From positions 1 through 35,465 of IMG/VR virus record IMGVR_UViG_3300023065_000102: a stretch of 35,465 bases of DNA. One strand, written 5' to 3'. Source of the DNA: an uncultured virus (IMG/VR IMGVR_UViG_3300023065_000102). The translations under genes and the position numbers were made by a program. The notes under the pieces were generated by a model. That model searched no databases. It was given only the letters and a program-made list of their open reading frames with translations, and was not told the DNA's origin. Below are positions 3,020 to 35,465 of the stretch, one piece after another; the first letter of the stretch is position 1, and every line of letters begins with the position of its first letter.

Positions 3020-3058
3020 ATGTCAGATCTCTCCGCACACACCCCGATTGTGCTGTAG
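3020..3058 (+). pseudogene. mutS: Detached native 5' end of mutS ([12 protein letters not shown])
   Basis: ATG TCA GAT CTC TCC GCA CAC ACC CCG AT matches the MutS start at 33860-33885, then diverges and stops at 3056-3058. Confidence 0.88.
3026..3048 (+). repeat. Left att core, 23 bp GATCTCTCCGCACACACCCCGAT
   Basis: Exact direct repeat of 33863-33885. Confidence 0.95.
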
Positions 3059-3169
3059 TACCAACCGGAACAGGCGCATAAGCCCCTATTTATCGAGGCT
3101 TGAGCGCCATCTCTCATTCTGGCATTAGCATATGCATGGGCGTAGATTGGCATGGAATGGCGTATGGTT

Positions 3170-3236
3170 TGCCCCAATTTTGCCCCACATCCGGACCATG
3201 GGGAATGAGCCAGCCGATGCATTGTGACTGCCCCAA
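3170..3236 (+). repeat. Putative integrase arm-type sites (TGCCCCA at 3170, 3181, 3229)
   Basis: TGCCCCAATTTTGCCCCAC has the same 11-bp-period layout as TGCCCCAAAATTGCCCCAC inside the other end. Confidence 0.7.
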
Positions 3237-3436
3237 CGATTATAAACGAGCTTGTTTCCTTTCACGCTAGCATGACGTCTATCGGCGCGGTCAAGCTTAG
3301 AAGCTGAGATAGCCACCGCTGAGCCAAGCTATGCCCGGAGCTCCCCTAGCCGGCTCAACTCGCACATCATGCGGATAGCAAAATGACATCGCCTGCAGCT
3401 ATAGTTGTTCATGTCTAAAAGCATGGACAAATAGAA

Positions 3437-3937
3437 ATGAGCGAAGGATTACCAACGCCCGCAAACACTGGTGCTAATGGCATGCAACTGAAAGGCTCAG
3501 CTAACGAGCCTGGCTTTCGCGCTGATGCTCCGCTTGAGGGGGTACTGCTAAAAACCGTCAAAGGCCTTGCTGAAAATCATCCGAGAAGCTTAGGAGGCGA
3601 TACCAACGCCGCATTCCTCGCCGGGATAGTTCACCACCTTACGAATGACTTAGAGTCTGTAAAAAGCAAATTAAATACTAAAGACGCTCAAACACTTGAG
3701 CTTACAACACAGCTAACCAACTCTCGAATCAATGAGACAAAGCTAATCGAGCAACTAGATTCAGCCAATAAAACCTCGCGCATCAATCAGTGGACGGGAA
3801 TCATTGGAACTGCACTGCTCGGTATTGCGCTAGACATGTACAAAAGCAATATGCAGTTGTCATATGCTGTAGGCTTATTAGGTGGAATCATTCTCCTCCT
3901 CCCCATAGGCATCACTCACATAGGTAATAAGAGATGA
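3437..3937 (+). CDS. Cargo protein: coiled coil plus two C-terminal TM helices, function unknown
   Basis: 166 aa, heptad-like segment LTNDLESVKSKL...LIEQLDSA, hydrophobic WTGIIGTALLGIALDMY and LSYAVGLLGGIILLLPIGI; AT-rich. Confidence 0.8.
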   Translation: MSEGLPTPANTGANGMQLKGSANEPGFRADAPLEGVLLKTVKGLAENHPRSLGGDTNAAFLAGIVHHLTNDLESVKSKLNTKDAQTLELTTQLTNSRINETKLIEQLDSANKTSRINQWTGIIGTALLGIALDMYKSNMQLSYAVGLLGGIILLLPIGITHIGNKR

Positions 3938-4329
3938 GACCTCTAAATCTATGGGGTGTCCAGGACGCTGGCACCCCTAACAAAGAACTCATTGCCATCA
4001 TGGTTACGGAACAGTGCGACCTCGCCAACTACTGCGTACTGATCGGCCATCAAAACATGGATGGTACTGCTACTCCAATTCAAGACCACATGTTTTGGTT
4101 CGGCAACGGAATCGTCAACGCCGGGGATTGGCTATTCATATATACGGGCCCAGGCAAATCCACAGTTCAAAAAATAGATGAAGTCAACAACATAATCAGC
4201 GTCCACTGGAACAAAGACAAAACGATATTCCAGAACAGATCTTTGATCCCAATCCTATCTAAGCTTTCGGAGGTATCATTCCCCCCCCAGCCTGAGGCGA
4301 AGGAACAGGCTTTCCTACTGGAAAGATAA
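3934..4329 (+). CDS. Cargo protein, lamin-tail-domain-like beta sandwich (tentative)
   Basis: 131 aa, ATGA overlap with upstream gene; pattern ELIAI..CDLANY..HMFWF..VNAGDWLFIYTGPG..VHW..IFQN resembles LTD consensus; no signal peptide. Confidence 0.65.
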   Translation: MRPLNLWGVQDAGTPNKELIAIMVTEQCDLANYCVLIGHQNMDGTATPIQDHMFWFGNGIVNAGDWLFIYTGPGKSTVQKIDEVNNIISVHWNKDKTIFQNRSLIPILSKLSEVSFPPQPEAKEQAFLLER

Positions 4330-4994
4330 AAAGCCCGCGAAATACTTGTAACACATGCAACAAAGGCGCCACCACATACTTGGAGCAAGCCGCCTACACT
4401 TGGCACTAGCATCGTTCCAGGCAGATAACAGCCCCGTGAATTGCCTGATCGCGTAGGCCGCCGCTCGGGGCGGCTGTCTCGGACTGGACATTGTGCATTT
4501 CTTCGGATGGCCCAACATCTAGGACGCAGAAGTAATGGTCGACAACGTCGCCAAGCAGCGATTGGCCGAGCTAGCCAGCAACGCGTAAAGCTGATTTCAC
4601 CAAGCAGATTGAGCGAAAGCGCCAATTTTTCGCTGAGAAGTGATCATACTTGGGCTGAACCCGTTACAGATAAAGAGCCATTCACACCAAGTGAAGTGTC
4701 TTTGCCTCATTGTCGTAGTTCGAAACGATGGTTTCCAGATAGCGCCCGTAAAACAGGTAGATATGAGTGGATCGTCGCGCTCGGGCGTAGGTCTTGACAT
4801 TCGCCTGCTCGGCCAGTGGAGCGCCGATATGGCGCAGTGGGCATGTCGTGTAGGCGATAGCCTAGGGGGAGCTAGAAAAAGTGCTCACGACTGGCGCAGC
4901 CATTGGGCACCTAGTATATTTCGAGCTTTAGAGTTATCCCACAATACTAGAGCAATATAAACTCTTATAGTTTACCCCAAGGAGACCATAAAGC

Positions 4995-6029
4995 ATGGAC
5001 AGTGAAAAATTGCGCATTGCATACCAAGACAACATAGGTCGAGCTGAACGCCTACGCGATGCGGTCATCGTGCAACTGCTAGAGCTATTCGCCCCCGCAA
5101 ACATAACCCTTGGCGTCCCCATTGAAAGCCGCATTAAAGACCTCACCTCAATTTTTGAAAAAATCGAAAGAAAAAGCATCAAGCTCGAAAATATACTAGA
5201 GCTACAAGACCTCATTGGAATACGTTGCATCTTACTATTCAAAAGAGACCTGGTAGAAATTAAAAAATTGATAACCAATACATTTGAAATAATTTCATCC
5301 GAGGACACAGGGGATCGACTTAGCGATTCGGAATTCGGATATCAGTCTCAGCACTACATAGTCAGAATCCCTACAGCCTGGCTTTCGCTCCCAAGCCTAT
5401 CAGGACTAAATGAGTTCTTTATCGAACTCCAAATTAGAACTCTTGCACAACACATATGGGCAGCAGCATCTCACAAATTACAATATAAAAATGAATCAGG
5501 CGTACCACTCCCAGTCCGAAGATCAATAAACAGAGTTTCTGCACTATTAGAAACTGTAGACCTAGAGTTTGAGCGAGTACTCAAAGATCGCGATGATTAT
5601 GTCACCCACGTAAAAAGCTCAATTACCAAAGACGAACTTATAAACGTTGACAATCTCGCGAAAGTATTGGCAGATATGTTGCCAGCAAACAACATAGCCG
5701 ACAATGAACCCTATGCCGCACTTCTAGACGACCTAACCAAACTAGGCGTAACACACACAAATAGATTAAAAGAAATTATAAAAAGCCATCTAGGCAAGGC
5801 ACTGGAAGAGGAGAGAGGGAAAGCTATAACACCCATTATAAAACTGGCAGCAGCGCCAAACACAGAATGGTGCAACCGATATGAGCGAGGTGCTTACTAT
5901 ACTCATACAGGCCTAACCCGGATAATGCTGAAAGAGGAGTTCGGCAGCGAGATCGTGAATAAAATCTCACATGTGATCTGCCAGCCGCTGTTCATTCACC
6001 CTGATCTTGAAACACCTACAAATGAATAA
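4995..6029 (+). CDS. RelA/SpoT-domain small alarmone synthetase-like protein with C-terminal extension
   Basis: SRIKDLTSIFEK, DLIGIR, GYQSQHY, ELQIRTLAQHIWAAASHKLQYK; AAGGAG RBS; no HD hydrolase domain. Confidence 0.92.
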   Translation: MDSEKLRIAYQDNIGRAERLRDAVIVQLLELFAPANITLGVPIESRIKDLTSIFEKIERKSIKLENILELQDLIGIRCILLFKRDLVEIKKLITNTFEIISSEDTGDRLSDSEFGYQSQHYIVRIPTAWLSLPSLSGLNEFFIELQIRTLAQHIWAAASHKLQYKNESGVPLPVRRSINRVSALLETVDLEFERVLKDRDDYVTHVKSSITKDELINVDNLAKVLADMLPANNIADNEPYAALLDDLTKLGVTHTNRLKEIIKSHLGKALEEERGKAITPIIKLAAAPNTEWCNRYERGAYYTHTGLTRIMLKEEFGSEIVNKISHVICQPLFIHPDLETPTNE

Positions 6030-6086
6030 TATTTTTTTCAAAAATAGCCTACGCTGATAGGACGGACTATAAGCATCAAGCCTTTA

Positions 6087-6102
6087 CTGTATAAATAAGC
6101 AG
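6087..6102. promoter_or_regulatory. LexA-box-like site
   Basis: CTGTATAAATAAGCAG, CTG-N10-CAG with AT-rich spacer, close to the recA box sequence. Confidence 0.65.
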
Positions 6103-6209
6103 GCAATAGTCTCACCGCGTTTTATGCACAAAGGCTGGACTTGCAGGAAAGGGCTGCGGATTCGGCAGGCCGGACTGGATGTTGGCGCATCCGCCCGGCT
6201 CGCCTCTTT

Positions 6210-6767
6210 TCATTTGGTGACTTCTCGGACGTAGGCCTGGCAGGCCCTCAGTGCGATCAGTCCTCGATCACCGCCGTCGGTGATACCGATAATTCGCTGA
6301 GCATGCGCTGGGTCAAGTTGGCCACGAATGGGTCCATGAACCATGCCTCCGGTGCCGGCGGCTTCTCGCACCCCACCGTCACAACCCGGGGCGGCAAAGG
6401 CTCCAGCGTCGACAAGGACTGACAACCGCAAGTCAGCAGTAGCCAGCCTGTCACGCAGGCGAGCTTGAATCTGTTGTGCATCGTTCATCTCCTTCCAATG
6501 TGTTTTGCCCTGCTCCTGAAGGCGATCCTCCAGGTCTTTTCGCCGAGCTTTCTGCTCTGCCAACTGCTCCAGGGCAGCAGCCGCTGCCGCCTCACGCTCA
6601 CGACCACGAGTCCGATCCCTGTCCGCCAACTGCTGGACATAGCCGGCAGCCTGCTCAGCCAACTGCTTTCCGTACTCACTAGCCTGCCACACCCAGGCGC
6701 TTCGGCCGCCGGCATAGAGCCCGACCGCCACGGCCAGAAGTGCGATGCGCCAATTCAGCGACATCAC
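6210..6767 (-). CDS. i-spanin (Rz-like)
   Basis: N-terminal TM, coiled coil, RLRDRLATADLRLSV and LRACQAYV; directly follows endolysin. Confidence 0.88.
   Translation of the reverse strand: MMSLNWRIALLAVAVGLYAGGRSAWVWQASEYGKQLAEQAAGYVQQLADRDRTRGREREAAAAAALEQLAEQKARRKDLEDRLQEQGKTHWKEMNDAQQIQARLRDRLATADLRLSVLVDAGAFAAPGCDGGVREAAGTGGMVHGPIRGQLDPAHAQRIIGITDGGDRGLIALRACQAYVREVTK
6257..6481 (-). CDS. o-spanin lipoprotein (Rz1-like), embedded in Rz
   Basis: Lipobox LLLTCGC, Pro-rich mature region, fully nested in another frame of the i-spanin. Confidence 0.8.
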   Translation of the reverse strand: MHNRFKLACVTGWLLLTCGCQSLSTLEPLPPRVVTVGCEKPPAPEAWFMDPFVANLTQRMLSELSVSPTAVIED

Positions 6768-7333
6768 TGCAACACCTCAAGTGCACGCGTGTAGAGCGCC
6801 TGGCGATCTTTCAACCCATTCAGGCCACCATTGATGCGGCGCGTGATCGACTCGAAAACCGCGTCATCGGCCTGCAACACCTTGTCAGCCAGGGTATTAA
6901 GCCCCGCACGCTGCCAGAACCAGCCGGCCGACAGCGAGGCGTACACGGGCTGTTCGAGCAGATCAGGGGTATTGAGCAAGCTGCTGTCACCGAACAGCGC
7001 TTCGCTGCAGGCTTCGTAGTTGTCGCGGCCGGTAATCTGGATGAGCCCACGGCCACGGTACCGCTGGCCATCACCGTCAGCCTCCGGGGTATTGCCGAGG
7101 CGCTGCGCCAGGCGCCCAGTGTCGTACTTGGCCAGGTAGGCATCGTTACCGAGTTCGCGCACGTAAAGCAGCTGGCCAGACTCATGGCCGACTTGCGCAA
7201 GGAATGCGGCAATGCGCCGAGGCGTAATGATCGAGTACTTACCCATCGTCGCATTGAGTCCAGGAACAAAAACGCCGGCTTTGCGGCCGGCGTTGGGGAG
7301 GATCTGCTGCAACTGTTGAACTGAGATAGCCAT
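6764..7333 (-). CDS. Endolysin, glycoside hydrolase family 19
   Basis: FLAQVGHESG, YRGRGLIQITGRDNY, ITRRINGGLNG; start MAISV at 7333 after GGAG. Confidence 0.93.
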   Translation of the reverse strand: MAISVQQLQQILPNAGRKAGVFVPGLNATMGKYSIITPRRIAAFLAQVGHESGQLLYVRELGNDAYLAKYDTGRLAQRLGNTPEADGDGQRYRGRGLIQITGRDNYEACSEALFGDSSLLNTPDLLEQPVYASLSAGWFWQRAGLNTLADKVLQADDAVFESITRRINGGLNGLKDRQALYTRALEVLQ

Positions 7334-7370
7334 TGATTTCTCCAGGGTTGGCCATATACGGCCATGAGGG

Positions 7371-8414
7371 TTAGAGCTGCTCAACCTTGAGCGGCTTTTC
7401 GTCTTTCTTTTTCTTGCCCGAGGCTTTGGCCTTGCCCTTCTTGCCGCCGTTGCATTCCACAGTTGTTGTCCAACCGTTCTGGGTAAACACCTGCTCGACG
7501 CTGTCCACCAGGTACTCGCCATCGAGCCCGACCTTGAAGTCCAGCGCATTGATCGAACATTCAGCGAACAGGTCGTGTCGACCTGCCATTTCCAGGCGCA
7601 CGCTGGCGGTGCTGCGGTTAAACGCGGCCAGCCGCGCCTTGGCGGCCTGCTTGGCGGCGGTTTCGTTGGGGTAGATATGGCGGTCGGTATGAACCGACGG
7701 CAGGCCATCCGGCGATTCGTCGTTGTCCAGCTGGACGACCTTCAAGGCTCCGGTTTTCGGGTCCTGGTGCTGGGTCTTAACCGCCTTTTGCGTACTGCGA
7801 TCGCCCAGTCGGAACTGGTAGCGGAAGACTTCCGTCTTGTTGATCTTCACGACCTGCAGCGACTTGCCCGACGTACTTTTGCCGCCCTGCCTAGGCATGA
7901 CCAGCAGCTTGCCTTCAGCCACCTTGGCCGTGCTGTCGTACTGACGCGCCAGGCGCGTGACAAAGTTGAAATCCGACTCGTTGCGCTGGTCGATGCGCTC
8001 GACCTTCGTCGTGACTGGGCACACCGGTTCCCAGCCGTTGCGCTTGGCAATTTCGGTGACAATCTGCGAAAGCGGCACGCCCTCCCAGCTGCCGCTTCGA
8101 ATGGTCTTTCCACTGCCACGCATATCGCTGGCCTTACCGCGAATGGTCAACTCGTCCGGTGGGCCGGACAGCTGCACCTCGTCGACGGTGTAGGCCCCCA
8201 TCCGCTTGAGAGGTTGGCCCTCATAGCCCAGTAGGACCTCGACCACGCCTCCTCGCGCCGGTAGTGCGACGACCTGATCGCGGTCGTCAATTCGCAGCTC
8301 AAACTCATCCGACGCCATGCCGGGCTTGTCCGAGATCCTCAGCAGCATCAAGCGGTCATTGATCAGCGCGGTGATGTCCTTGCGGTCCGCGATGATTCGA
8401 TAGGTTGGTTTCAT
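7371..8414 (-). CDS. P2 gpD-like baseplate hub / late control D protein
   Basis: SDEFELRIDD, LGYEG, YTVDEV, QRNESDFNFVTRLA; position after gpX. Confidence 0.9.
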   Translation of the reverse strand: MKPTYRIIADRKDITALINDRLMLLRISDKPGMASDEFELRIDDRDQVVALPARGGVVEVLLGYEGQPLKRMGAYTVDEVQLSGPPDELTIRGKASDMRGSGKTIRSGSWEGVPLSQIVTEIAKRNGWEPVCPVTTKVERIDQRNESDFNFVTRLARQYDSTAKVAEGKLLVMPRQGGKSTSGKSLQVVKINKTEVFRYQFRLGDRSTQKAVKTQHQDPKTGALKVVQLDNDESPDGLPSVHTDRHIYPNETAAKQAAKARLAAFNRSTASVRLEMAGRHDLFAECSINALDFKVGLDGEYLVDSVEQVFTQNGWTTTVECNGGKKGKAKASGKKKKDEKPLKVEQL

Positions 8415-8424
8415 GCTTACTCCA

Positions 8425-8455
8425 GAAACAGAAAGCCCCGCACGGGACGGGGCTT
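8425..8455 (-). terminator. Rho-independent terminator-like hairpin between gpX and gpD
   Basis: AAGCCCCG-7-CGGGGCTT followed by a T-rich tract on the minus strand. Confidence 0.6.
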
Positions 8456-8473
8456 CGTTACAGGTACGCGGGG

Positions 8474-8680
8474 TCAGTCGAACAGTTGCAGCAACTCGAC
8501 CGCCGGTGCCGATAGATCGGGCAACAGGATCAGCAAGCCGGCACGATAAGGCTGCGCTTGCCTGGCCAGATCCGGGTTGGCTTCCAGCACCGCCTCGACG
8601 GTGCCGTTGAGGTGCCCGTAGTGGTGCTGACAGATCACGTCGAGCAGGTCGCCGTCAGACGTTCTGCATGTCGTTGCCAT
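8474..8680 (-). CDS. P2 gpX-like tail protein
   Basis: GDLLDVICQHHYG, VLEANPDLA, LLPD. Confidence 0.92.
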   Translation of the reverse strand: MATTCRTSDGDLLDVICQHHYGHLNGTVEAVLEANPDLARQAQPYRAGLLILLPDLSAPAVELLQLFD

Positions 8681-9500
8681 AACTCACAAACTCCAGGTTA
8701 AAACCCTGTTTACGGGGGATGCCGCCTGACAGCAGGTGGCTTTGTTGCTCTTCAATACTGACCAGGCACCAATTGCCCAGCACCTCGCCGTAGCCCGTGA
8801 CCAGGTTCAGCGGCTGCAGGTTACGGCCAATGGTGCGCAGCACGTTCAGCTGCTGCAGGCCGCCCTTGTGATGGGGGAAAATCGCGCCCTTGAGCGTGAT
8901 CTTTTCCTCACCCAAACCCACAGCCTGCTGCGCCACAGTGCGGCGAAGGCGTTCCTGACCAGCCCAGCGAAACGACGCCTGCCGGCGCAGTTCGTCAAAC
9001 GCAGCCGTATCGAGGTTGAAGTAATACGGCTGCTTCTTGGGGTCATGCGGCTGGATAATCAGCAGATGCGGGAACGGCGCGACGGCCTCAGGTTGCGGCG
9101 TTGTCGTGCCCAGCAGACCGCCGGTGGGCACGATGTTGGACAGCGAAGGGCTGACCAAACCCGCCACCCGGCCGGCCTCGGCCGAGACCTTGTCCGCCAT
9201 CCGCTTGAACGTGCCTAGTCGCTCCTGCACCTGGGTGGCCCCGTTAACGACACGGCTATAGGTCGCGGCCACCTGCCCCACACGGGACTGCGCCACGTTG
9301 ATACTGCGCACGATCCGGCCGAGCTTGGCGCCGACCTCGGGCGGCACGAACGGAATACTGTCCAGTTCCGCCGCAGCGCCCGTGATGCTGCCGATAGCGC
9401 CATTAAGGGGTGACAGCATGCCATCCATACTCTTGCGTCCAGCCTCCCCTGCCGCAACCAGTCCCGTCAGAGATGATTCCAGCAGCTGCATGTAGGCCAT
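8655..9500 (-). CDS. P2 gpU-like tail protein
   Basis: ELRRQASFRWAGQERL, ITLKGAIFP, LVTGYGEVLGNW; start MAYMQ at 9500 after AGGAGG. Confidence 0.88.
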   Translation of the reverse strand: MAYMQLLESSLTGLVAAGEAGRKSMDGMLSPLNGAIGSITGAAAELDSIPFVPPEVGAKLGRIVRSINVAQSRVGQVAATYSRVVNGATQVQERLGTFKRMADKVSAEAGRVAGLVSPSLSNIVPTGGLLGTTTPQPEAVAPFPHLLIIQPHDPKKQPYYFNLDTAAFDELRRQASFRWAGQERLRRTVAQQAVGLGEEKITLKGAIFPHHKGGLQQLNVLRTIGRNLQPLNLVTGYGEVLGNWCLVSIEEQQSHLLSGGIPRKQGFNLEFVSYGNDMQNV

Positions 9501-9510
9501 AAGGCCCTCC

Positions 9511-12500
9511 TTAGACGTGTGGTTGATCGAATAGCTGAGTCGAGGACATCCGCGCCGATACTTCACGCTGCCAAGCCTCAAACAGCTGCCGCAGGGGCGA
9601 TTCGATTTCACGAACGACCTGCGCCGGGTCCTTCACATCACCCTGCACATCGATCTTGATATTTGGCGAAAAGGAGAACGCCTGGTCCACCTGCGGCGCC
9701 GCTGCAGGCGCAGGCGCGGCTGCCTTGGCTGGCTGTACCAGTTCCGGCATTCGCGGCGCCGGCGGCGTTGCCTTGGCCATCATGTCGCGCACTACATCGC
9801 CAAACCCGGCAGGCAGGGTCGCCAACTGGGGGGCTGTTTGGAGTGGCACTGCCTCGCCAGCTGGCTTGGGCTCGCTACGATCGACAACTACTGGCGCCGG
9901 TGCCGACTTTGCCGGAACCTCGCGCAGCGTCTCACCCAGCTTGATCGGCGGCGTTTCCGGCGCCGGTTGCGGATGAGCTTGCGGCGGCACCAAGCCTGCG
10001 CCAGGGAAACGCACCTTGCTGGCCGTCAGCGCCGGCAGCAGGTATGGGTCCCTGGACTCAGGATCGAGCGGGTCATAGGACACCGGCGGTTCTACCGGCG
10101 CCGGCGTGGCCACCGTGCGCACCGTGTCGCCAAGCTTCGCCGGTGCGGCCGGTAGAGGCCGCGCTGGCTCAGGCTCGGGTTCTGACTCTGGCTCGGGCAC
10201 CGGTTCTGGTTGAATCGGCGGCCGCACCAGGGGCGCACCTGGGAAACGCACCTTGTTGGCGGACAGCGCCGGCAGCAGGTACGGGTCCTTGGACTCAGGA
10301 TCGAGCGGGTCATAGGACACCGGCGGTTCTACTGGCACCGCCGTGGCAACCGCGCGCACCGTGTCGCCAAGCTTCGCCGGTGTCGCCGGCAGGGGCGGCA
10401 CTGGCTCAGGCTCAGGCTCAGGTTCGGGCACCGGTTCAGATTGAATCGACGGCCGCACCAGAGGCGCACGCGGGAAACGTACCTTGTTGGCCGTCAGCGC
10501 CGGCAGCAGGTACGGGTCATTGGAGTCAGCATCAAGCGGGTCATTGGACACCGACGGCTCTAACGGCGCTGGCGTGGCCACCGCACGCACCGTGTCGCCC
10601 AACCTCGCAGGTGCCGGCGCTGGGAGCGGTACTGGCTCAGGCTCGGGTAACGGATCTGGCTCGAGCACAGGCTCAGGTTGAGCCGGCGGACGCACCAGCG
10701 GTGCACCTGGGAAACGCACCTTATTGGCCGTCAGCGCCGGCAGCAGATACGGGTCCTTGGACTCTGGGACGAGCGGGTCATAGGGCACCGGCGCCGGCGT
10801 GGCCACTGTGCGCCCCGTGTCGCCCAGTTTTGCCGGCGATGTCGGTAGCGGCTTGACGACTGGCTCGCGATTGTCGACCACCGCAGGCTCAGACATTTGG
10901 ACTGCAGGCGTCGCCACCGGCACCAACTTGGTGGCCTTGACCAGGTCACGCATCGCATCGCCTAAGGCCGGCGCGGGCAATGCCGGCACAGGCTCGCGGC
11001 TAACATCCACTAAGGGCAAAGGCACCTGGACTGCGGGGGCAGGTACCGGCTTGGTGGCATCGACCAGGCCACGCATCAGCGCACCTAGAGCCGGCGCCGG
11101 TGATGCCGGCACAGGCTTGGTAACAGGCTCGCGGTTATCAACCACCACGGGCTTAGGCACCTGGACTGCAGGCACCATGACCGGCTTTTCCACTTTCGGG
11201 GAAGGTACCGGCTTGGTGGCCTCGACCAGGTCACGCACTGCCTCACCCAAAACCGGCGCCGGCGATACAGGCACAGGCTCGGCAACAGGCCTGCGATTAT
11301 CAACCACCACGGGCTTAGGCACCTGGACTGCAGGCGCCACGTCCGGATTTTCCACTTTCGGGGAAGGAACCGGCTTGGTGGCCTCGACCAGGTCACGCAC
11401 TGCCTCACCCAAAGCCGGTGCCGGCGATGCCGGCACAGGCTTGGCAACAGGCCCGCGATTATCAACCACCACGGGCTTAGGCATCTGGACTGCAAGCGCC
11501 ACGTCCGGCTTGTCCACTTTCGGTGAAGGCACCGGCTTGGTGGCCTCGACCAGGTCACGCACCGCCTCACCCAAAGCCGGCTTGGCAACAGGCCCGCGAT
11601 TATCAACCACGACGGGCTTAGGCACCTGGACTGCAGGCGCCACGACCGGCTTGTCCACCTTCGGTGAAGGCACCGGCTTGGTGGTCTCGACCAAATCACG
11701 TACCGCCTCACCCAATTCCGGCACGGGCGATACGGGAACAGACTTGACGACAGGCTCGCGACGATCGACAAGCACTGGAGGCTGCTGTGCCGGTTCTGAC
11801 GCCACCGGGAGCGGCACCGATGGCTCACCCTTGCCCTCCACGCGCTCCTGCGCAGGTTGCAGCGTGGCGCTTAACGCTTCTCTCGGTGCCGTTGGGTTTT
11901 CCGACTCGGCCTTGGTTTCGGGTGACTCATCACCGAACCAACGCTTGCCCAACCAACCGCCCAGCGATTGACCACCCAGGCCACCTAATACGGCCCCTAC
12001 AGCCCCCCCAACAGCAGTACCGATGACGGGCACTACGGAACCAATAGCAGCGCCGGCCGCAGCACCGGCTAAGGTACCTGCAAGACTGCCTGCAGCGCCA
12101 CCGTACCCCTCAGCCTTCTCATCCTGAGATTTGGCATTGATTGCCACATCGATCGCGGCCGCACCGGCATCGACAACGTTGCCACCAGGGAGCCGCTTGG
12201 CGAGTCGAGTAATCCCTCGCACCGAGCGCGCCACTTTGCCGAGCTCATCCCCGACGGTCGGGGCCGAAGGAGCTGCGAGCAGACGTTGCGGCCTGACCAT
12301 AGCAGCCTGGGGCGCCTCGACTTTCGCAACGGGCCGGGCCGTAGTGCCCTGTTTCGCCGCACGTCTACGCTCCCGGCGGCGACTTCTACGACTGCCTCCG
12401 CTAGGCGGCGCTGCCGGGGAACTATTTGCAACACGACTGCCGATCCCTCCGATGGCATCGGCGTTAACCACAAATACACGCTGCGTGTCGCCGCCGCCCG

Positions 12501-25191: not shown

Positions 25192-25356
25192 ATGAAATCA
25201 GCACAGCACAAAGGATCGGTCACGGTCCTGATCCACCCCACCGCCTGCAGCAGCCTTGCAAAGATTCAGGCATTCCAGCGCAGCACCGGCTTGCAGTTGG
25301 TCGTCACCCAGGATGGTAAGGCCCACGCAGTAGCGGCCACCGTAGGTGCAGCATGA
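25192..25356 (+). CDS. Small early phage protein
   Basis: 54 aa, VLIHPTAC..IQAFQRSTG; stop overlaps next ATG. Confidence 0.65.
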   Translation: MKSAQHKGSVTVLIHPTACSSLAKIQAFQRSTGLQLVVTQDGKAHAVAATVGAA

Positions 25357-25862: not shown

Positions 25863-26104
25863 GCACGCTGGAACAACTGCGCAGTGAGTTCGCCACCCCT
25901 TGCCCGACGCTGTCCGCCGTGAGGGAGCGCTATTTCGCTCACATCGGTACAGACCGACGACTCAGGGAGCTCATCAACAAGGGCCAGATCGATCTGCAAC
26001 TGAGCAAGTTACACAACTCGGCGAAGGCCCAGCACGTGGTTTACCTGCAGAACCTGGCCGCATATCTGGATCGCCAGGCAGAGCGCACTACTCAATCCGC
26101 TTGA
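25859..26104 (+). CDS. Pyocin activator PrtN-family protein
   Basis: TLSAVRERYFAHI, INKGQI, SAKAQHVVYLQNLAAYLD. Confidence 0.8.
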   Translation: MSTLEQLRSEFATPCPTLSAVRERYFAHIGTDRRLRELINKGQIDLQLSKLHNSAKAQHVVYLQNLAAYLDRQAERTTQSA

Positions 26105-26189
26105 ACCAGGCGGCCCCGGCCAACAGGGGCACACTGCCCGCCACCGACTCTCACCCCGCAAGGTGGCGGGCCACGAAGGAGCACAGCAC

Positions 26190-26708
26190 ATGCAACCTCA
26201 TCAGTATGCACTCGCCGCTGGCATCGGCTGGATGGTCACCCTGATCATCCTTCCTTTCCTGATCGCTAAGGCACGCCGACTTGCTTATGCCCGAGGCTTC
26301 GAGGCCGGCAAAACCTTCCACGACCAGACCTTGAGCCTTCAGCTCAAGGAAGCCAAACAGGCCCTGGACGATCTACGCGCAGAGCTGCTGCGTACTCAGC
26401 AAACCGGCAATGTGCAGCTTGCCGCGCGCGAGGCCAGCATTGCTGCGCTCAAGGCAATTATCAGCGAACTTGAAGCCCGAATCATGTCGTACACCGGCCT
26501 CCCGGTGACTAAGGCTGACTACGAGAACTTGATCAACGCTTCGTCCACGATGCGCCTGGCTCAGCGCACCTTCAAAGCCCTGAGAACCGAAGCCAAGGCA
26601 ACGCGAGCAGGTGCCCAGGCTGACGTCATTGACGAGCTGGCCAAACGGATCCATGCCCAGCTGCGCAGCACTCCGGCCAGCGCCGCCAAAGCAGGGGCTG
26701 CAGCATGA
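26190..26708 (+). CDS. Phage hypothetical protein, N-terminal TM plus coiled coil
   Basis: AAGGAG RBS, hydrophobic ALAAGIGWMVTLIILPFLIA; overlaps MTase start. Confidence 0.75.
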   Translation: MQPHQYALAAGIGWMVTLIILPFLIAKARRLAYARGFEAGKTFHDQTLSLQLKEAKQALDDLRAELLRTQQTGNVQLAAREASIAALKAIISELEARIMSYTGLPVTKADYENLINASSTMRLAQRTFKALRTEAKATRAGAQADVIDELAKRIHAQLRSTPASAAKAGAAA

Positions 26709-28534: not shown

Positions 28535-28827
28535 GCACGCACCGCCATGACTGGTACATGAGCGAGGGCGACGACGGCGGCCTGTATCACTGCAGGAAGT
28601 GCAGACGTAATCACCAAGGCACCGTCCCAGAAGCTCGCGACTGCCCAGTGTCAAACGCCGAGCATCACGCCGCCGCTTGGCTCGGCCAGGCCGGGCTGTA
28701 CCGCAATCGGTTTGACGCCGTGCGCAACTTCGAGCAATCCGTCGCGCCGGTATCCGCCAACGAACTGTTTGAGCTGGCCAGGAAACAGGTTCTCAGCCAG
28801 CTCAACGAGGGCCGCCAACATGGATAA
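28531..28827 (+). CDS. Phage hypothetical protein
   Basis: 98 aa, CRKC, WLGQAGLY; overlapping start/stop. Confidence 0.7.
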   Translation: MSTHRHDWYMSEGDDGGLYHCRKCRRNHQGTVPEARDCPVSNAEHHAAAWLGQAGLYRNRFDAVRNFEQSVAPVSANELFELARKQVLSQLNEGRQHG

Positions 28828-29023
28828 ATCAACACGCACCTGGCAGTTGATCAGCCTCGCGCTCGCAGTGGCGCTGATCGTCGCCCTCGTCGAGCTGCAT
28901 CACAACACCACCGCTGGCAGCCCTGCGAACGGCACGTTACCGACCGCTAACAGCTCCACAAACCTTGAGCAACTGGCCCTCAGCCCGAACACTCGCCGAG
29001 TCCATGAGAGGTATTCGCTGTGA
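28820..29023 (+). CDS. Small membrane-anchored phage protein
   Basis: MDKSTRTWQLISLALAVALIVALV; GAGG RBS. Confidence 0.6.
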   Translation: MDKSTRTWQLISLALAVALIVALVELHHNTTAGSPANGTLPTANSSTNLEQLALSPNTRRVHERYSL

Positions 29024-29205
29024 TCGACACATCGACCTACACCCCAGCCACTCGCACCCGCAAGGGTATGCAACCGATGTTCCGCCCAGCCATGTCGTTC
29101 ATCTGCGACATCTGCGGCAACGCCCGCGTCAAGGGCAACCACAACCGGTGCTCCAAGGTCCGCCAAGCAGCTGGGTTCATCATCAGCCGGAGGGCTACGG
29201 CATGA
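29020..29205 (+). CDS. Small putative zinc-binding phage protein
   Basis: CDICG..H..CS; GTGA and ATGA overlaps. Confidence 0.65.
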   Translation: MIDTSTYTPATRTRKGMQPMFRPAMSFICDICGNARVKGNHNRCSKVRQAAGFIISRRATA

Positions 29206-29693
29206 CAATCGACATCATCAGACTGAAGGCACTCGCCACTGCTGCTGCCGCTAATCAATACGACTCCGTAGCCCTGAATGACTACGGTACAGCACTACCG
29301 CACGCGACAGTGTTGGGCTTGATCGCAGAGATTGAGCGCCACCGCCTGATAATCGCGGAGGGCGGTACGCCCGACATCAACAACGCCCACACAGCAGCTC
29401 TGCGCGTTCTCGAGGAACGGCTGCGCCAGATAGACGGCAATGGATACACAGCAGAGCGGGATGACCAGTACACCCGAGGCCAGCTAGCCGACGCTGCCGG
29501 TGCATATGCGTTTTGGGCTTACACCTGCAACATGGAGCATTACGAGGTAACTACCATCCCGCCATCTTGGCCATGGCAGCCCGAACAGTGGAAGCCAACT
29601 AATCAAAGACAAATGCTCGTCAGAGCCGGCGAACTGATTTTAGCGGAAATCGCCCGCTTGGATCGCAAGCATGCACGTGAGGTGACCGCATGA
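29202..29693 (+). CDS. Ead/Ea22-like protein fused to an ERxRQ...WPW...WKP domain
   Basis: MTIDIIRLKALA..PHATVLGLIAEIER then EERLRQ..DDQY..WPWQPEQWKP..LILAEIARLDR. Confidence 0.65.
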   Translation: MTIDIIRLKALATAAAANQYDSVALNDYGTALPHATVLGLIAEIERHRLIIAEGGTPDINNAHTAALRVLEERLRQIDGNGYTAERDDQYTRGQLADAAGAYAFWAYTCNMEHYEVTTIPPSWPWQPEQWKPTNQRQMLVRAGELILAEIARLDRKHAREVTA

Positions 29694-29884
29694 GCACACC
29701 TCGCTGGGTACTGATCAACCGAGCCGCCGAGCTTACCGGCTACTCCGAGGATGCCATTCGCCACAAAGTGAAGAATGGAACCTGGGCGCAGGGCCGGATC
29801 TGGCGAAAGGCCCCTGATGGCCGCATCACCATCAACATTGCAGAGTATGACAAGTGGGCCGAGAGCGCATCACAAGTGGCCTAG
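29690..29884 (+). CDS. xis: Excisionase
   Basis: AAELTGYSEDAIRHK wHTH, WRKAPDGR; overlaps integrase start. Confidence 0.88.
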   Translation: MSTPRWVLINRAAELTGYSEDAIRHKVKNGTWAQGRIWRKAPDGRITINIAEYDKWAESASQVA

Positions 29885-31101
29885 AGGCCGAACTGGCTAA
29901 GCACACCGGTATCGAGATTCACGGGGGCAACTTACGGGTTGTTTTCATGTGGCGCCGCATCCGCTGCCGCGAGTCTCTCGGCCTACCGGTAACCAAAGCC
30001 AACATCAAACACGCCGCTCTTCTCAGGGCGGCGATTCTTCACGAGATAAAAATCGGCACTTTCGAATACGGGCGTCACTTCCCAAACTCGAAGCACGCAG
30101 CTAACTACAGCAATGCAAAGGACGAACGCCTGGCTGCCCTAGCAGAGCGATACAAGCCGTTGAAGGCCATCGACATCACTCCTATGACTGAGGAGAAGTA
30201 CTCGTATGCCATCGATATTTGCGTTGACCTGGTGGGCGAGGACCGACTGGCCGGCGTCCTGCTGCCTGAAGACATCCACGTTCTTCGAGCACGCCTGATT
30301 GAAACCAGAGCCCCCTCGACCGCCAACCACTACCTCGCCACTTTCGCCGGTTTCCTAACCTGGTGCGAAAGCAACAAGTACTGCATCACCGGCCTCGCCG
30401 CCGCCTGCACCCGCTTCGCAATGAGCGAGAAGGAACCAGACCCGCTCACCCATGACGAGTTCGACCTACTCATCTCGAAGGGGTGCCTACACCCCCAGGA
30501 CACGGCCGCTATCACACTGGCGGTGTATACCGGACTGCGACCAGGTGAACTCTGTGCACTAGCGGTTGAAGACATCGACCTTAAGGCCGGCAAAATCGAG
30601 GTCACCAGGGCGATCACCGCGAATGGCACATTTAAGACCCCAAAGACAGGTAAGCCACGAACGGTGCTTCTGATGGAGCCTGCTCTAAACGCTTGTCGCG
30701 CTCTGATCGAAATGGTTGCTGCCCACCCGAAGCGGACTATCGACGTATATTTGAACCGACACGAGTGGAGAGAGGAGTCTGTAACCCCCCTCCTATCACC
30801 GAGCACTCAAGCGAGAAAGCGGGGCATCAACGAATGGTTTGTGTCCACCGCCTGGAACACCAAATGGGCAACCATCCAGCGTAGAGCCGGTATCAGATCT
30901 CGCCGGCCTTACCAAACGCGTCACACTTACGCATGTTGGTGTCTTACGGCGCGTGGCAATCTAGCCTTTATTGCCAAGCAGATGGGTCACAAGGATTTCA
31001 CGATGCTGGTAGAGGTGTATGCAAAGTGGATGGACGACGAGTCACCCGCTGAACTTGAGCGTATATGGAGTATGCTGCGAAGACTGAGAACTCAGCTATA
31101 A
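29854..31101 (+). CDS. int: Tyrosine integrase with N-terminal arm-binding domain
   Basis: RCRESLGL arm domain, YTGLRPGE, KTPKT, YQTRHTY, MGH, VY. Confidence 0.96.
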   Translation: MGRERITSGLEAELAKHTGIEIHGGNLRVVFMWRRIRCRESLGLPVTKANIKHAALLRAAILHEIKIGTFEYGRHFPNSKHAANYSNAKDERLAALAERYKPLKAIDITPMTEEKYSYAIDICVDLVGEDRLAGVLLPEDIHVLRARLIETRAPSTANHYLATFAGFLTWCESNKYCITGLAAACTRFAMSEKEPDPLTHDEFDLLISKGCLHPQDTAAITLAVYTGLRPGELCALAVEDIDLKAGKIEVTRAITANGTFKTPKTGKPRTVLLMEPALNACRALIEMVAAHPKRTIDVYLNRHEWREESVTPLLSPSTQARKRGINEWFVSTAWNTKWATIQRRAGIRSRRPYQTRHTYACWCLTARGNLAFIAKQMGHKDFTMLVEVYAKWMDDESPAELERIWSMLRRLRTQL

Positions 31102-31160
31102 AATCAGCAACAGCGAATTTGAAAAATTCGCTGCTTGACTCCCAACCCAATAAAAACATA

Positions 31161-32210
31161 CTAGATATGTGCGTAATCAGATCTCAACCGAGCAAGTGTA
31201 TCCTCAAAGAAAGGAACCTTTGGAGAGGATGCGTAGAACGCGTATCGCAATGCAAAACCAAACGAACCCCACTCGTTATGTACTGCATTCACAGCATGCT
31301 TTATAGCTTTCCCACTCCCTGTGTGAACCCCCTTAACTCTATCTATCTCGATACGACGCTTATCGTGACTGGCGGCATCAACGACCCTTACAAACATATC
31401 ATAAACATCATGACCCCGGACAAATAGATATGCGCTTTCCGGACAAACGCTCTTCTCACGCGCCACCTCTAAAAAGTCAGAAAACTCCAACTCTAGACCT
31501 TCATCATACACCATCTGAAGCAAGTTATGACTTACAATATTTATACGCTGCCGAAAGCCAAAAAGAACATCCGCAAGGGGTGTCTCATGACCTAAGTTGT
31601 ACCCACCAATCGAAGATAATGCGCCATAAAACTCCGACTTCCAGGCCTGTACCTTTTGCACACCCAAAATAGCATTACAAAATGAAAGCAGTAGGAGAGA
31701 GCTATGTATTATCGCGCTAACTGAGGAAAGAAAAGCCGATGGAGGACATGCAACATCTTCCTTGGTACAAGCCGCAACGGACTCAAAAATAACGTCAACC
31801 AAATCACCATGAAGAAACGCGTTCTCAATGGAGTATATATTGGTATAGTAAATATACTGGGAGAATTTCTCCTGCACAGGAAGAGCTAGCCCCCGAAGAT
31901 ACCCATCGTCGCCGTCCAAACAAAATATTAAGTTTGGACCAAGCTTAAAGTCACCCAACTCTTTGAGCGCTATAAGTCTTTTACATCCATTTGCTTTTTT
32001 ACCATCACTCGCATTGTGCTCTTCAGAAAACTTGACATCGAACCGCACATTTGCCAGCTTGGGAAGACAGGCATTCCAGAACCGCTTGTCATCTCGCGAT
32101 TCGACATAGACCATGACAACCGCCGTCTCTGAGCCGTCAATGTTGAAAAATTTAGCTTTAGCAATATCTGATGAATCCAAAACAAATCCAAACTCGCTTT
32201 GAATAAACAT
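31161..32210 (-). CDS. ariB: DUF4435 TOPRIM-like nuclease, PARIS AriB-like
   Basis: VYVESRDDKRFW, CLDGD, YYTNIYSIEN, VRGHD; ATG 1 nt after the ATPase stop. Confidence 0.82.
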   Translation of the reverse strand: MFIQSEFGFVLDSSDIAKAKFFNIDGSETAVVMVYVESRDDKRFWNACLPKLANVRFDVKFSEEHNASDGKKANGCKRLIALKELGDFKLGPNLIFCLDGDDGYLRGLALPVQEKFSQYIYYTNIYSIENAFLHGDLVDVIFESVAACTKEDVACPPSAFLSSVSAIIHSSLLLLSFCNAILGVQKVQAWKSEFYGALSSIGGYNLGHETPLADVLFGFRQRINIVSHNLLQMVYDEGLELEFSDFLEVAREKSVCPESAYLFVRGHDVYDMFVRVVDAASHDKRRIEIDRVKGVHTGSGKAIKHAVNAVHNEWGSFGFALRYAFYASSPKVPFFEDTLARLRSDYAHI

Positions 32211-32211
32211 A

Positions 32212-33375
32212 TCAACCGCCCTGCGCAACCAATCTAGCCATATTCACAACCTTTTCCTGATCAGTATTCATGACCAAGAATGGTGAATGAGTTGCAACGA
32301 TAAACTGGCAATTCGGAGCCAAGTCTATCAAACCAGGAAGAAGCATTTTCTGCCATTCCATGTGCAGTGACAAATCGGGCTCATCCAAAACAAACAACGC
32401 GCCATCTCTATTGAGAAAAACTATCAAAAACAAAGCTAGTAGGGTTTTCTCCCCCCGAGAAAGCGAAGACCACTTCACGAACTTCCCCGCTTGAAGCTCA
32501 ACACCAAGACTCTTATCCCGCCAAACAAGTTTTCGGGATGTCAATGCAAATATCTTGTTAATTCCTACAAACATAGGGTGATCAGCAAAGCGCTTTTCAT
32601 CTGTAATGAAAATGTCCCGCGCTTTTATTTTCGACATCACGTACTGCCTAGTCTGAACCATAAGCTCATTATCAGCAGTGTCTGCTTCTGCCCCTTGCTT
32701 TTTCAGAAACTCATCAATGTACTTATCAATCTCATCACCGAGATCCTGCCTGACCAGCTGACTGGAAATAAACTCATTAATCAACACATAAAGAGTTTTA
32801 TCAAGATCACCTTCGAGTTCTTTCTTTGCAAAGACAGCACTCTCAGATGACCTTTCGTAGCCGAAAACCACTCTATCGCTAATGAAGCCAACAACCCTCA
32901 AGCTCTTGACAAACTCCGGCGCCTCCTCGGGACTTCTGTTTAACTGCATCGCGCAATAAACTTGATCCTCATCATCCCCGCTCTTGGAAGCAAATCCTTC
33001 TCGCATCTTTGTTTCAACAATGGCTTTCGCCATAGAGGCAAACATTTCTGGCAATGGCTTCGGATTAATTAAAAGCTGCCTAATAGAGCTTTCCCAATCC
33101 TTTTTCTTGACTGTTCCAAGGGTGTCAAATTTCATGCCGTGAAATGTATATCCACCCTCGAAATCAAGCTTTATGATCCAGTCTTCAGACCAGTCCGAAT
33201 AATCTATGCCATTAACTAAAGACAACGACTCCAAAATAGCGGAGAGTACTCGGGACTTGCCTACACCATTAAAACCTGTCAGCACAAGGATATTACGCCC
33301 CGGATCAAGAGAGATAGTTATTTCCCTCCCTTCACAAGGCGAGTTAAACAAACACACTTTTTCAAGACGATTCAA
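32212..33375 (-). CDS. ariA: ABC-type (AAA_15/AAA_21) ATPase, PARIS AriA-like
   Basis: TGFNGVGKS, LSRGEK, VLDEPDLSLH, ATHSP; start uncertain (TTG 33375 after GAGGG, or ATG 33405). Confidence 0.82.
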   Translation of the reverse strand: MNRLEKVCLFNSPCEGREITISLDPGRNILVLTGFNGVGKSRVLSAILESLSLVNGIDYSDWSEDWIIKLDFEGGYTFHGMKFDTLGTVKKKDWESSIRQLLINPKPLPEMFASMAKAIVETKMREGFASKSGDDEDQVYCAMQLNRSPEEAPEFVKSLRVVGFISDRVVFGYERSSESAVFAKKELEGDLDKTLYVLINEFISSQLVRQDLGDEIDKYIDEFLKKQGAEADTADNELMVQTRQYVMSKIKARDIFITDEKRFADHPMFVGINKIFALTSRKLVWRDKSLGVELQAGKFVKWSSLSRGEKTLLALFLIVFLNRDGALFVLDEPDLSLHMEWQKMLLPGLIDLAPNCQFIVATHSPFLVMNTDQEKVVNMARLVAQGG

Positions 33376-33797
33376 TTGGCATCCCTCGTTCAACCGGTAG
33401 CTCATTGCTACAAGCTGAAAATATTTATACCTATTTAATATAGCATCATCAGTATGCCTTTTACATCCACCGACTACACCTTGTGACATCTCCCAGTCAA
33501 GAGCACCAGGGTGCTTCAGCATTCGCCATCCAATCGACGGCTAGATTGCGACAGTCGCTGCTCTGGACTCCGCGCTCTCAAATCCGATTCCCCCCCTCCC
33601 CCTAGAAATTCGCTCACAGGAACGACGCCCTTCACAACCTCACCATGAGAGAGAGGACAACTGCTTGCTCAGAAAGCAGCACATGGGTTCCCAGAAAATG
33701 CATTGACTCATAGCGTGTTGGCCATAGAGCTGACGTGATAACCTTGCCACCATCCTATTTCTGCTTGGACATGAACGCTGAAAAGCTATCAGCCCAA

Positions 33798-33815
33798 TGC
33801 CCCAAAATTGCCCCA
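33798..33815 (+). repeat. Putative integrase arm-type sites (TGCCCCA x2)
   Basis: 11-bp-period direct repeat matching 3170-3187. Confidence 0.7.
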
Positions 33816-33844
33816 CGGCTCCTAGAAAGCGCTCCAAACACTTG

Positions 33845-35465
33845 ATGAATAAAGCAATTTCTGATCTCTCCGCACACACCCCGATGATGCAGCAGTACTG
33901 GAAGCTGAAAAACCAGCACCCGGACCAGCTGATGTTCTACCGCATGGGCGATTTCTACGAGATCTTCTACGAAGATGCGAAGAAAGCCGCAAAACTGCTG
34001 GATATCACCCTGACCGCGCGCGGCCAGTCGGCCGGCCAGTCCATCCCCATGTGCGGCATTCCGTTCCATTCGCTGGAAGGCTACCTGGCCAAACTGGTCA
34101 AGCTCGGCGAATCGGTGGTGATCTGCGAACAGATTGGCGACCCGGCAACCAGCAAGGGCCCGGTAGAGCGCCAGGTGGTGCGCATCATCACCCCCGGCAC
34201 GGTCAGCGACGAAGCACTGCTCGACGAGCGCCGCGACAACCTGATTGCCGCGCTGCTGGGCGATGAACGCCTGTTTGGCCTGGCGGTGCTGGACATCACC
34301 AGTGGCAACTTCGGCGTGCAAGAGATCAAAGGCTGGGAAAACCTGCTGGCCGAGCTCGACCGCCTCAACCCGGTCGAACTGCTGATCCCCGACGACTGGC
34401 CACGCGACCTGCCGGCCGAAAAACGCCCTGGTGCGCGCCGCCGCGCCCAGTGGGACTTCGACCGCGATTCGGCGCGCAAGGCCCTGTGCCAGCAATTCGC
34501 GACCAAGGACCTCAAAGGCTTTGGCTGCGACAAGCTGACCCTGGCCATCGGCGCCGCCGGTTGCCTGCTGACCTACGCCAAGGAAACCCAGCGCACCGCC
34601 CTGCCGCACCTGCGCAGCCTGCGCCACGAGCGCCTGGACGACACGGTCATCCTGGATGGCGCCAGCCGCCGCAACCTGGAGCTGGACGTCAACCTGGCGG
34701 GCGGGCGCGACAATACCCTGCAGTCGGTGATCGACCGCTGCCAGACCGCCATGGCCAGCCGCTTGCTGACCCGCTGGCTGAACCGCCCACTGCGTGACCT
34801 CAAGGTCCTGCAGGCGCGCCAGGATTCGATCCGTTGCCTGCTCGACGGCTACCGTTTCGAAAAACTGCAGCCGCAGCTCAAGGAAATTGGCGATATCGAG
34901 CGGATCCTCGCCCGTATCGGCCTGCGCAATGCCCGCCCACGCGACCTCGCACGCCTGCGTGATGCCCTCGGCGCCCTGCCCGAGCTGCAAAACGCCATGG
35001 CCGAGCTGGAAGCCCCGCACCTGGCACGCCTGGCCGCCATTACCGGCACCTACCCAGAGCTGGCCAGCCTGCTGGAGCGGGCGATCATCGACAACCCGCC
35101 CGCGGTAATCCGTGACGGCGGCGTGCTCAAGGCCGGCTACGACAATGAGCTGGACGAGTTGCTGGCGATCAGCGAGAACGCTGGCCAGTTCCTGATCGAC
35201 CTGGAAGCCCGTGAAAAAGCCCGTACCGGCCTGGCCAATCTCAAGGTCGGCTACAACCGCGTGCATGGCTACTTCATCGAGCTGCCGACCAAGCAGGCCG
35301 AACAAGCCCCGGGCGACTACATTCGCCGCCAGACCCTCAAGGGTGCGGAGCGCTTCATCACCCCAGAGCTCAAGGCGTTCGAGGACAAGGCACTGTCGGC
35401 CAAGAGCCGCGCCCTGGCCCGCGAGAAGATGCTTTACGATGCCCTGCTCGAAACCCTGATCAGCC
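33845..35465 (+). CDS. mutS: DNA mismatch repair protein MutS (partial, runs off window) with prophage-supplied N-terminus MNKAIS
   Basis: [40 protein letters not shown]; missing from the ORF track because it has no stop in the window. Confidence 0.99.
33863..33885 (+). repeat. Right att core, 23 bp
   Basis: Exact direct repeat of 3026-3048, inside mutS codons 7-14. Confidence 0.95.

Follow-up and report, generated by a model that had tools for sequence, protein, structure and literature searches.

A 30.8-kb element (positions 3049 to 33862) splits the mismatch repair gene mutS in the 35,465-nucleotide stretch analyzed here (the window), which is the IMG/VR record IMGVR_UViG_3300023065_000102 of an uncultured virus. 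The splitting of mutS was confirmed, and the element is very probably a defective temperate prophage of the myovirus type, with an integrase of a family that targets the first mutS codons and a phage attachment site (attP) that carries, in one arm, a surrogate 5' end for the interrupted gene.

The window holds exactly two copies of the 23-bp sequence GATCTCTCCGCACACACCCCGAT, both on the + strand and none on the - strand, which form the cores of the left and right attachment sites (attL and attR; Table 1). An exact 23-mer repeat within 35 kb is far beyond chance, and the repeat is imperfectly prolonged to 43 nt (positions 3019 to 3061 versus 33856 to 33898; 86% identity; repeat family D12). The insertion point corresponds to mutS codons 3 to 10. 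At the left end, the ATG at 3020 opens a frame beginning MSDLSAHTP (MS followed by DLSAHTP), which is the start of an uninterrupted mutS in 20 of 140 species genomes. Here the frame runs for 12 codons into a TAG stop at 3056 to 3058. At the right end, the core encodes DLSAHTP plus 2 bases of the first Met in MMQQ and is preceded by an element-derived start, MNKAIS, whose frame continues as MutS domains I to IV until the window ends. The sequence-only reading of this DNA had placed the core within the first mutS codons, the left start in a frame stopping after 12 codons, and an element-made, in-frame start at the right copy. All of this was borne out, except that the right-hand ATG is at 33845 and not at 33846, one nucleotide off. 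Another in-frame ATG further upstream (33797) was rejected as the mutS start since it is not conserved among relatives. Both copies of the core are read in one codon phase, with GAT (Asp) at 3026 and 33863, so recombination inside it would rebuild an in-frame mutS. The G+C content is 0.589 in the element versus 0.637 and 0.650 in its flanks.

Next to attL, recA, cinA and a gene for a 373-residue protein follow one another on the - strand, and this flank is therefore the mutS/cinA-recA region of a Pseudomonas. The uninterrupted arrangement, with recA, cinA, the gene without assigned function and a mutS starting with MSDLSAHTP, is found in L048, a species-representative genome that provides the empty site. 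Window positions 1 to 3061 align with 2972 to 6036 of L048 (80%) and positions 33856 to 33962 with 5994 to 6100 (96%), and both alignments overlap within the repeat. When 37 native-type upstream regions of Pseudomonas mutS genes were combined into a profile, its sole match in the window was at 2913 to 3024, so that the host's own mutS upstream region, with a conserved CCTGTAsyATT motif and a TAAGG Shine-Dalgarno-like site, now lies at attL. In two other loci, L074 and L081, the native upstream motif reads CTGTAGTATTAGACAG, of the form CTGT-N8-ACAG, which we take to be the LexA-box form. Should this form be genuine, the SOS response may regulate the native mutS, or else the divergent gene, in some species.

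As described above, the native upstream region has been moved 30.8 kb away. The int gene is followed by a hairpin (31113 to 31135) and then by 2.4 kb of genes on the opposite strand (31161 to 33522). Since the native region is so distant and these genes are oppositely oriented, we infer, soundly on the evidence of the gene order, that mutS transcription now depends on element DNA. As for a promoter there, the best candidate found by eye is weak, pairing TTGGAC (33765 to 33770) with TATCAG (33787 to 33792) across 16 nt, with 8 of 12 matches. A DNA contig from a soil run spans 32000 to 33892, thus crossing attR, with 0 mismatches. RNA-library contigs from three soil metatranscriptome runs match the defense genes AriA and AriB without mismatch, and their ends at 33587, 33588 and 33623 hint at most faintly at an ariA transcript that stops near 33588. 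One RNA-library contig reaches 33842, but it continues upstream into the junction of another strain.

Integrase relatives and loss of phage functions

A search with the integrase gave 37 loci in species-representative genomes of Pseudomonas, Ectopseudomonas, Stutzerimonas, Metapseudomonas, Azotobacter and Azorhizophilus, with identities of 64 to 92%. In 36 of them int is directly followed by mutS in the same orientation; at the 37th the contig stops 1.3 kb beyond int. All 36 junctions carry a six-codon leader ahead of an Asp or Glu codon, which starts with MNK in 29 and is exactly MNKAIS in 17. The leader is preceded by a GCCCCA-N5-GCCCC motif, and cTAAGycAyTG stands just before the ATG in most of these junctions. 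The gap between int and the mutS ATG is 75 nt or less in 18 of the 36, and the remainder hold 1.2 to 3.3 kb of cargo in between. The cargo occupying this slot in the window is a PARIS-like pair of defense genes, a stretch without counterpart in the 177 other loci compared, and only about 33777 to 33862 is common to other elements. An orphan host start followed by ATTGTG was seen within the DNA examined at 4 of the 37 loci (L009, L015, L032 and L034).

The window has an integration module of the lambda type, consisting of an arm-binding tyrosine recombinase, an excisionase, the core repeat and arm-type repeats on both arms. Two matches to GCCCCA-N5-GCCCCAC lie on the same strand of the window, GCCCCAATTTTGCCCCAC near attL and GCCCCAAAATTGCCCCAC near attR (expected number, 0.13; two or more in 2 of 100 shuffles), a pair that fits arm-type integrase sites.

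We also observed truncated integrase fragments (57 to 336 residues matched) that still abut a mutS with an element-type start, in L031, L032, L034, L036, L037 and L015; these show in-place decay stages of such elements. No close free phage was present in the phage collection, where all 342 integrase-matching records have less than 60% identity and no sequenced free phage of this Pseudomonas group turned up. The best match is Aeromonas phage pAEv1818 (L038), with an integrase 44% identical. Its positions 3740 to 3980 hold the arm motif just downstream of the integrase, a short ATG-led frame resembling a mutS start, and the arm motif again, and are probably a mutS-targeting attP in Aeromonas.

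The element does not contain an intact temperate phage, as replication, packaging and head genes are incomplete or were not found. Its primase is 86% identical over residues 1 to 650 to the 938-residue primase of its closest relative, L002. The homology breaks off inside ...MEGSGK, a Walker-A motif, and is followed by an unrelated tail of 46 residues, which places the deletion junction near 21312. Likewise, the match to the PHROG primase profile (855 positions) reaches only position 571 in the window versus 841 in L002. In the window, gpW begins 166 bp past the primase stop; in L002, small genes and then the terminase small subunit come after the primase. Neither this subunit nor the primase C terminus of L002 has a match in the window (tblastn, E limit of 1e-3), and none of the 38 window open reading frames (ORFs) scanned matched the "head and packaging" category of PHROG. 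The same tblastn search found no window match to the spike (gpV) and holin of L049, where a tail cluster without integrase lies beside a native mutS start in the order gpW, gpV, unknown gene, holin, unknown gene and PrtR-like repressor. The simplest reading of these comparisons is one internal deletion, from inside the primase gene to just upstream of gpW. With the primase truncated and no head, terminase, spike or holin gene found, the excised circle could probably neither replicate nor be packaged, and any excision here would be a one-way curing and not a toggle.

Taken together, we propose that a lambda-type, arm-binding tyrosine integrase recombined the phage attP with the 23-bp core that encodes D-L-S-A-H-T-P of MutS. 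The phage arm beside the core would carry a surrogate mutS 5' end, composed of the ATG, five further codons and about 65 to 85 nt of upstream DNA. After integration, the mutS frame would be complete, with MNKAIS replacing MS, and the host start and promoter would be stranded at attL. The target gene would be preserved by design, as is general in phages inserting at gene ends, and recombination in the identical cores would restore the native gene without a scar. The later internal deletion would have removed replication, packaging, head, spike and holin functions, leaving an element at most able to excise and then be lost. This proposal supposes transcription of mutS from within the element, active Int and Xis proteins, and about equal MutS activity in the two states.

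Survey of mutS 5' ends across the genus

Of 151 species genomes from Pseudomonas, the genus of locus L001, 150 yielded a mutS gene, and the 6 kb upstream of mutS were compared for 140 of them. The ten left out are G001 (the same as L001), G101 and G153 (unpublished, and counted in the first tally only), G102 (partial match), G037 and G055 (contig edges), G022, G025, G047 and G079. Thirty-eight loci have a short native-type leader (MS, MT, MSQS and similar). The others, 102 of the 140, have an element-type mutS 5' end: a four-codon leader with integrase (1 locus), a six-codon MN-type leader with an integrase match within 6 kb (11 loci) or without one (64 loci), or a six-codon MSK-type leader (26 loci). 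Integrase matches within 6 kb were obtained at 12 of the 140 loci, covering at least 40% of the query in 9 of the 12, so that 90 of the 102 element-type loci have none within this distance. In 28 of these 90, cinA also lies within 6 kb, and almost nothing of an element can be left there.

A profile of 36 integrase-linked attR arms was compared with the same loci. It matched the one four-codon locus, all 11 MN-type loci with an integrase, 62 of the 64 MN-type loci without one and 23 of the 26 MSK-type loci, as against 2 of the 38 native-type loci, both at 4.6 bits or less. Furthermore, in L009 and L015 the orphan start left by the present-day element is itself of the element type (MNKALT or MSKNTS), which indicates serial overwriting. 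We therefore lean, if only slightly, toward the view that in most Pseudomonas species the working mutS 5' end, from no less than 65 nt of upstream DNA through the ribosome-binding region and start codon to the sixth codon, is an attR fossil left by this phage family. It would have become fixed once the prophage had decayed or been lost by deletion, and newer elements would since have overwritten it again. The leader counts, the arm profile, the element-type orphans of L009 and L015, and the arm motif flanking a mutS-like mimic in pAEv1818 are all consistent with such an origin. On the other side, the 6 kb upstream of mutS at the element-type loci without integrase gave neither an orphan host start (0 hits over all 140 loci) nor a remnant of the native promoter, and both were likewise missing from the 3 kb adjoining cinA in 10 of 10 genomes without integrase, which is evidence against fossil sites or neutral. 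Only the arm motif and the Aeromonas phage suggest a transfer from phage to host, and a phage may instead have captured a host 5' end. We found no statement of this idea in the papers listed by the literature searches or in the sections consulted, figures aside, of the 2017 study of mutS elements discussed below.

The survey suggests that the surrogate end often becomes permanent, which would count against an obligatory switch. That it is fixed for good so often points to an adequately working 5' end whose main role is not regulation. Tail genes lie beside an untouched native start in 8 of the 38 native-type loci. The possibility that all tailocins between mutS and cinA are fossils of this element was accordingly rejected as a general rule; not every tailocin at this site arrived via the in-gene att site.

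Precedents and competing explanations

Elements with this way of life are known. Chu et al. (2017; mBio 8:e02045-16, PMC5296598) describe integrase elements, in hundreds of Beta- and Gammaproteobacteria, that interrupt mutS within its HTPMMQQ motif, with an orphan host start upstream and a start and promoter supplied by the element. Their Table S2 lists many Pseudomonas strains, and the element of P. putida F1 has 43,005 bp. When the element of V. splendidus 12B01 excises, a 2-bp frameshift stays behind and a hypermutator results; for E. coli 536, B. multivorans CF2 and P. putida F1, PCR revealed excision without a scar (PMC5296598). The window agrees with these elements in having a tyrosine integrase upstream of mutS, an insertion at the HTPMMQQ start, an upstream orphan host start, an in-frame start and upstream DNA supplied by the element, and terminal direct repeats; the grouping is by site and architecture and not by the integrase sequence of 12B01 or F1. 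Since its two cores agree in all 23 bp and share one codon phase, a 2-bp scar is not expected, in which it differs from 12B01 and resembles F1. Unlike the F1 element, it is a 30.8-kb deletion derivative with a PARIS-like pair between int and attR.

The SpyCI elements of Streptococcus pyogenes had been invoked as an analogy in the sequence-only reading, and the comparison holds loosely. SpyCIM1 interrupts the mutS-mutL transcript, keeps mutL off while integrated and is not known to carry structural genes. Both are phage-derived islands with an integrase at a mismatch repair locus, and in both excision would alter what drives the repair gene. In contrast to SpyCI, the integrated state seen in the window keeps, by sequence, a complete mutS frame with its own ATG, so the frame is intact in both states, and it has a tail module (7371 to 21005). 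A further parallel is offered by temperate phages that integrate into the 3' ends of tRNA genes or of icd, whose attP holds a copy of the target's end so that the gene survives. Here it is the 5' end that is replaced, and a start codon, a ribosome-binding region and a promoter are needed besides coding sequence. Tailocins share the neighborhood as well. Ghequire and coworkers reportedly described, in 2015, tailocin clusters between mutS and cinA in Pseudomonas. Tailocin-like prophages between these genes are documented in strains of the P. fluorescens group, and P. putida F1 has a prophage unrelated to them on the upstream side of cinA (Mavrodi et al. 2009). They are like the window in location, P2-like tail module, endolysin and S24 repressor; they differ in having no integrase and no att repeats, and the L049 cluster also has the spike and holin that are unmatched in the window.

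Several observations weigh against our interpretation of the element as a decayed prophage that leaves a working mutS behind. The window is itself a virus record assembled from an environmental sample. A sigma-70-like consensus scan of 33300 to 33950 returned 0 sites; the same scan of the native region (2750 to 3450) also returned 0, so that it is too strict and uninformative either way. Most relatives have a TAAG motif ahead of the surrogate ATG; the window has CAAACACTTG at this place, and translation initiation may therefore be weaker in this copy. No RNA-library contig from the three soil runs covers 33624 to 33841, but these are low-depth contigs and settle nothing about mutS transcription. 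Finally, the sequence-only reading had taken int, xis, the arm-like repeats and a RecA-cleavable repressor to be intact. Int, xis, the arm repeats and an S24 repressor with the GDSM and KR motifs of the Ser/Lys dyad are indeed present; the canonical Ala-Gly cleavage site was not seen in the translation of this CI-like repressor.

That same reading raised a possible excision-controlled mismatch repair switch. In this rival account, the element promoter would have another level or control, SOS-triggered excision would restore the host promoter, and the mutation rate would differ between the states to the benefit of the cell. The idea is already in print, since Chu et al. (2017; PMC5296598) proposed a two-promoter switch for this element family, P. 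putida F1 included. Promoter and start are indeed exchanged between the two states, Int, Xis and an S24 repressor are present, the lack of the TAAG motif might lower the MutS level, and with spike, holin, packaging functions and part of the primase gone, induction need not kill the cell; a family member excises scarlessly in P. putida F1, as noted above. However, the text of the same paper gives no expression or mutation-rate difference for any scarless member, by its authors' own account. The 90 Pseudomonas species genomes that keep an element-type end with no integrase within 6 kb point to a permanent 5' end, and the truncated primase, with an excised circle that would be lost, to a one-way curing. 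Moreover, the DNA upstream of the arm-type site is unrelated cargo that varies between elements, a poor fit to a conserved regulatory design. We regard the switch as possible but unsupported, and as an unlikely account of this locus.

It is also improbable that the element is a working, mobile R-type tailocin that has kept an integrase. Such a particle would fit the R-pyocin-like tail module and endolysin found without head genes, the gpW, which is 74 to 85% identical to gpW of tail clusters lacking an integrase beside mutS in other species, and the standing of mutS/cinA as a known tailocin site in the P. fluorescens group (Mavrodi et al. 2009). Sheath, tube, tape measure, baseplate, fibers and endolysin are there, yet the set is not full, as the spike and holin that adjoin gpW in L049 are unmatched in the window. 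Further, gpW follows at 166 bp a primase cut in its Walker-A motif, which looks like an accidental deletion, and L002, as the closest relative, goes on into a terminase small subunit and is hence a whole phage. A repeat arisen by chance, or a metagenome assembly chimera of a phage and a piece of mutS, is extremely improbable. The origin of the window as a virus record from an assembly would allow it, but the same junction architecture recurs in 36 genomes, isolates included, an independent DNA contig crosses attR with no mismatch, and the left and right flanks are contiguous in L048. The defective prophage thus remains our preferred explanation.

Remaining genes of the element and implications

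The positions of all features are collected in Table 1. Several of them deserve comment. The host protein encoded at 1766 to 2887 has no match in Pfam, PHROG or PADLOC; it belongs to a conserved gene of about 370 codons between cinA and mutS, also present in the empty-site genome L048, and in both L048 and L049 its homologues are neighbors of a mutS start of the native type (the L049 ORF is 75% identical). At the attL end, the 344-residue RelA/SpoT-domain protein, a PADLOC candidate (PDC-S33), lies between small ORFs without a family in a region of low G+C content (0.47 at 4001 to 6000), and this cargo block may be an alarmone-synthetase toxin or a defense module. The endolysin ORF as listed overlaps the next gene, so its real start is probably further inside. 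The tail module comprises gpD, a gpX-like gene, gpU, the tape measure (9511 to 14253), tube, sheath, fiber and assembly genes, gpI, gpJ and gpW (20679 to 21005), the start of gpW having been placed by tblastn with L049 gpW. The tape measure, of 1,580 residues and on the - strand, contains long tandem repeats of about 162 nt (4 to 6 copies) and about 231 to 237 nt (3 to 4 copies), with 68 to 88% identity, a repeat content that is unusually high for such a protein. The gap separating int from ariB, which are convergent, holds a perfect inverted repeat of 9 bp (CAGCGAATT, a 5-nt loop and AATTCGCTG; 31113 to 31135), a hairpin that is likely a bidirectional terminator.

Table 1. Features of the window, in order of position
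Feature	Positions	Strand	Basis
recA (58-1242) and cinA (1229-1711), host flank	58-1711	-	Pfam RecA 3.8e-143, CinA 3.2e-53
Host gene without assigned function, 373 residues as listed; divergent from mutS in the uninterrupted state	1766-2887	-	
Native mutS upstream region, now parted from the gene	2913-3024	+	Profile match, E 3.8e-17
Orphan host mutS start, ending in IVL and stop	3020-3058	+	Sequence read
attL core, exact 23-bp repeat	3026-3048	+	Exact-match search
Arm-type repeat, attL-proximal arm	3171-3188	+	Motif search
Low-G+C cargo genes, including RelA/SpoT-domain protein (4995-6029)	3437-6422	+	Pfam RelA_SpoT 1.2e-22, PADLOC PDC-S33 1.2e-16
GH19-type endolysin	6764-7708	-	Pfam Glyco_hydro_19; phrog_181 endolysin 1.9e-72
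P2/R-pyocin-like contractile tail module	7371-21005	-	Pfam, PHROG
Prim-Pol primase, truncated	21172-23262	-	Comparison with L002, PHROG primase profile
Early rightward genes: DksA/TraR zinc finger, CII-like activator, Cro-like repressor	23214-24261	-	Pfam, PHROG
CI-like repressor, helix-turn-helix and S24 peptidase domains	24320-25051	+	Pfam Peptidase_S24 6.1e-21
Early leftward genes, several small, including C5 cytosine methyltransferase (26705-28534)	25159-29693	+	Pfam, PHROG, PADLOC
Excisionase (xis)	29690-29884	+	phrog_539 excisionase 5.9e-14
Tyrosine integrase (int), N-terminal arm-DNA-binding domain	29854-31101	+	Pfam Arm-DNA-bind_2 3.3e-21, Phage_integrase 1.8e-17
PARIS-like defense pair: AriB-like DUF4435 (31161-32228) and AriA-like ATPase (32212-33522)	31161-33522	-	PADLOC AriB 3.7e-20, AriA 6.9e-25
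Element DNA that must hold any mutS promoter of the integrated state	33523-33844	+	
Arm-type repeat, attR-proximal arm	33799-33816	+	Motif search; same place in integrase-linked relatives' junctions
Element-derived ATG and five more codons (MNKAIS)	33845-33862	+	Sequence read, relatives' junctions
mutS, first 540 codons, open at the window end	33845-35464	+	Pfam MutS_I to MutS_IV
attR core, exact 23-bp repeat	33863-33885	+	Exact-match search

The locus alone adds little, being one more, degraded, member of a mutS-targeting family known since 2017. With its att cores, int and xis intact and no means of replication, packaging or lysis found, it would be a convenient place for testing the switch without phage killing as a confounder. 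What is new here, and matters more than the locus, is the genus survey with its 102 element-type mutS 5' ends among 140 species genomes, 90 of them with no integrase within 6 kb. If these ends are fossil attR sites, replacement by phages of the regulatory region of a core genome maintenance gene has been both repeated and permanent, and the annotated MutS N termini of the genus would record past infections. If most Pseudomonas species do express mutS from a fossil phage arm, integration would be a source of recurrent and lasting regulatory turnover at a gene that governs the mutation rate.

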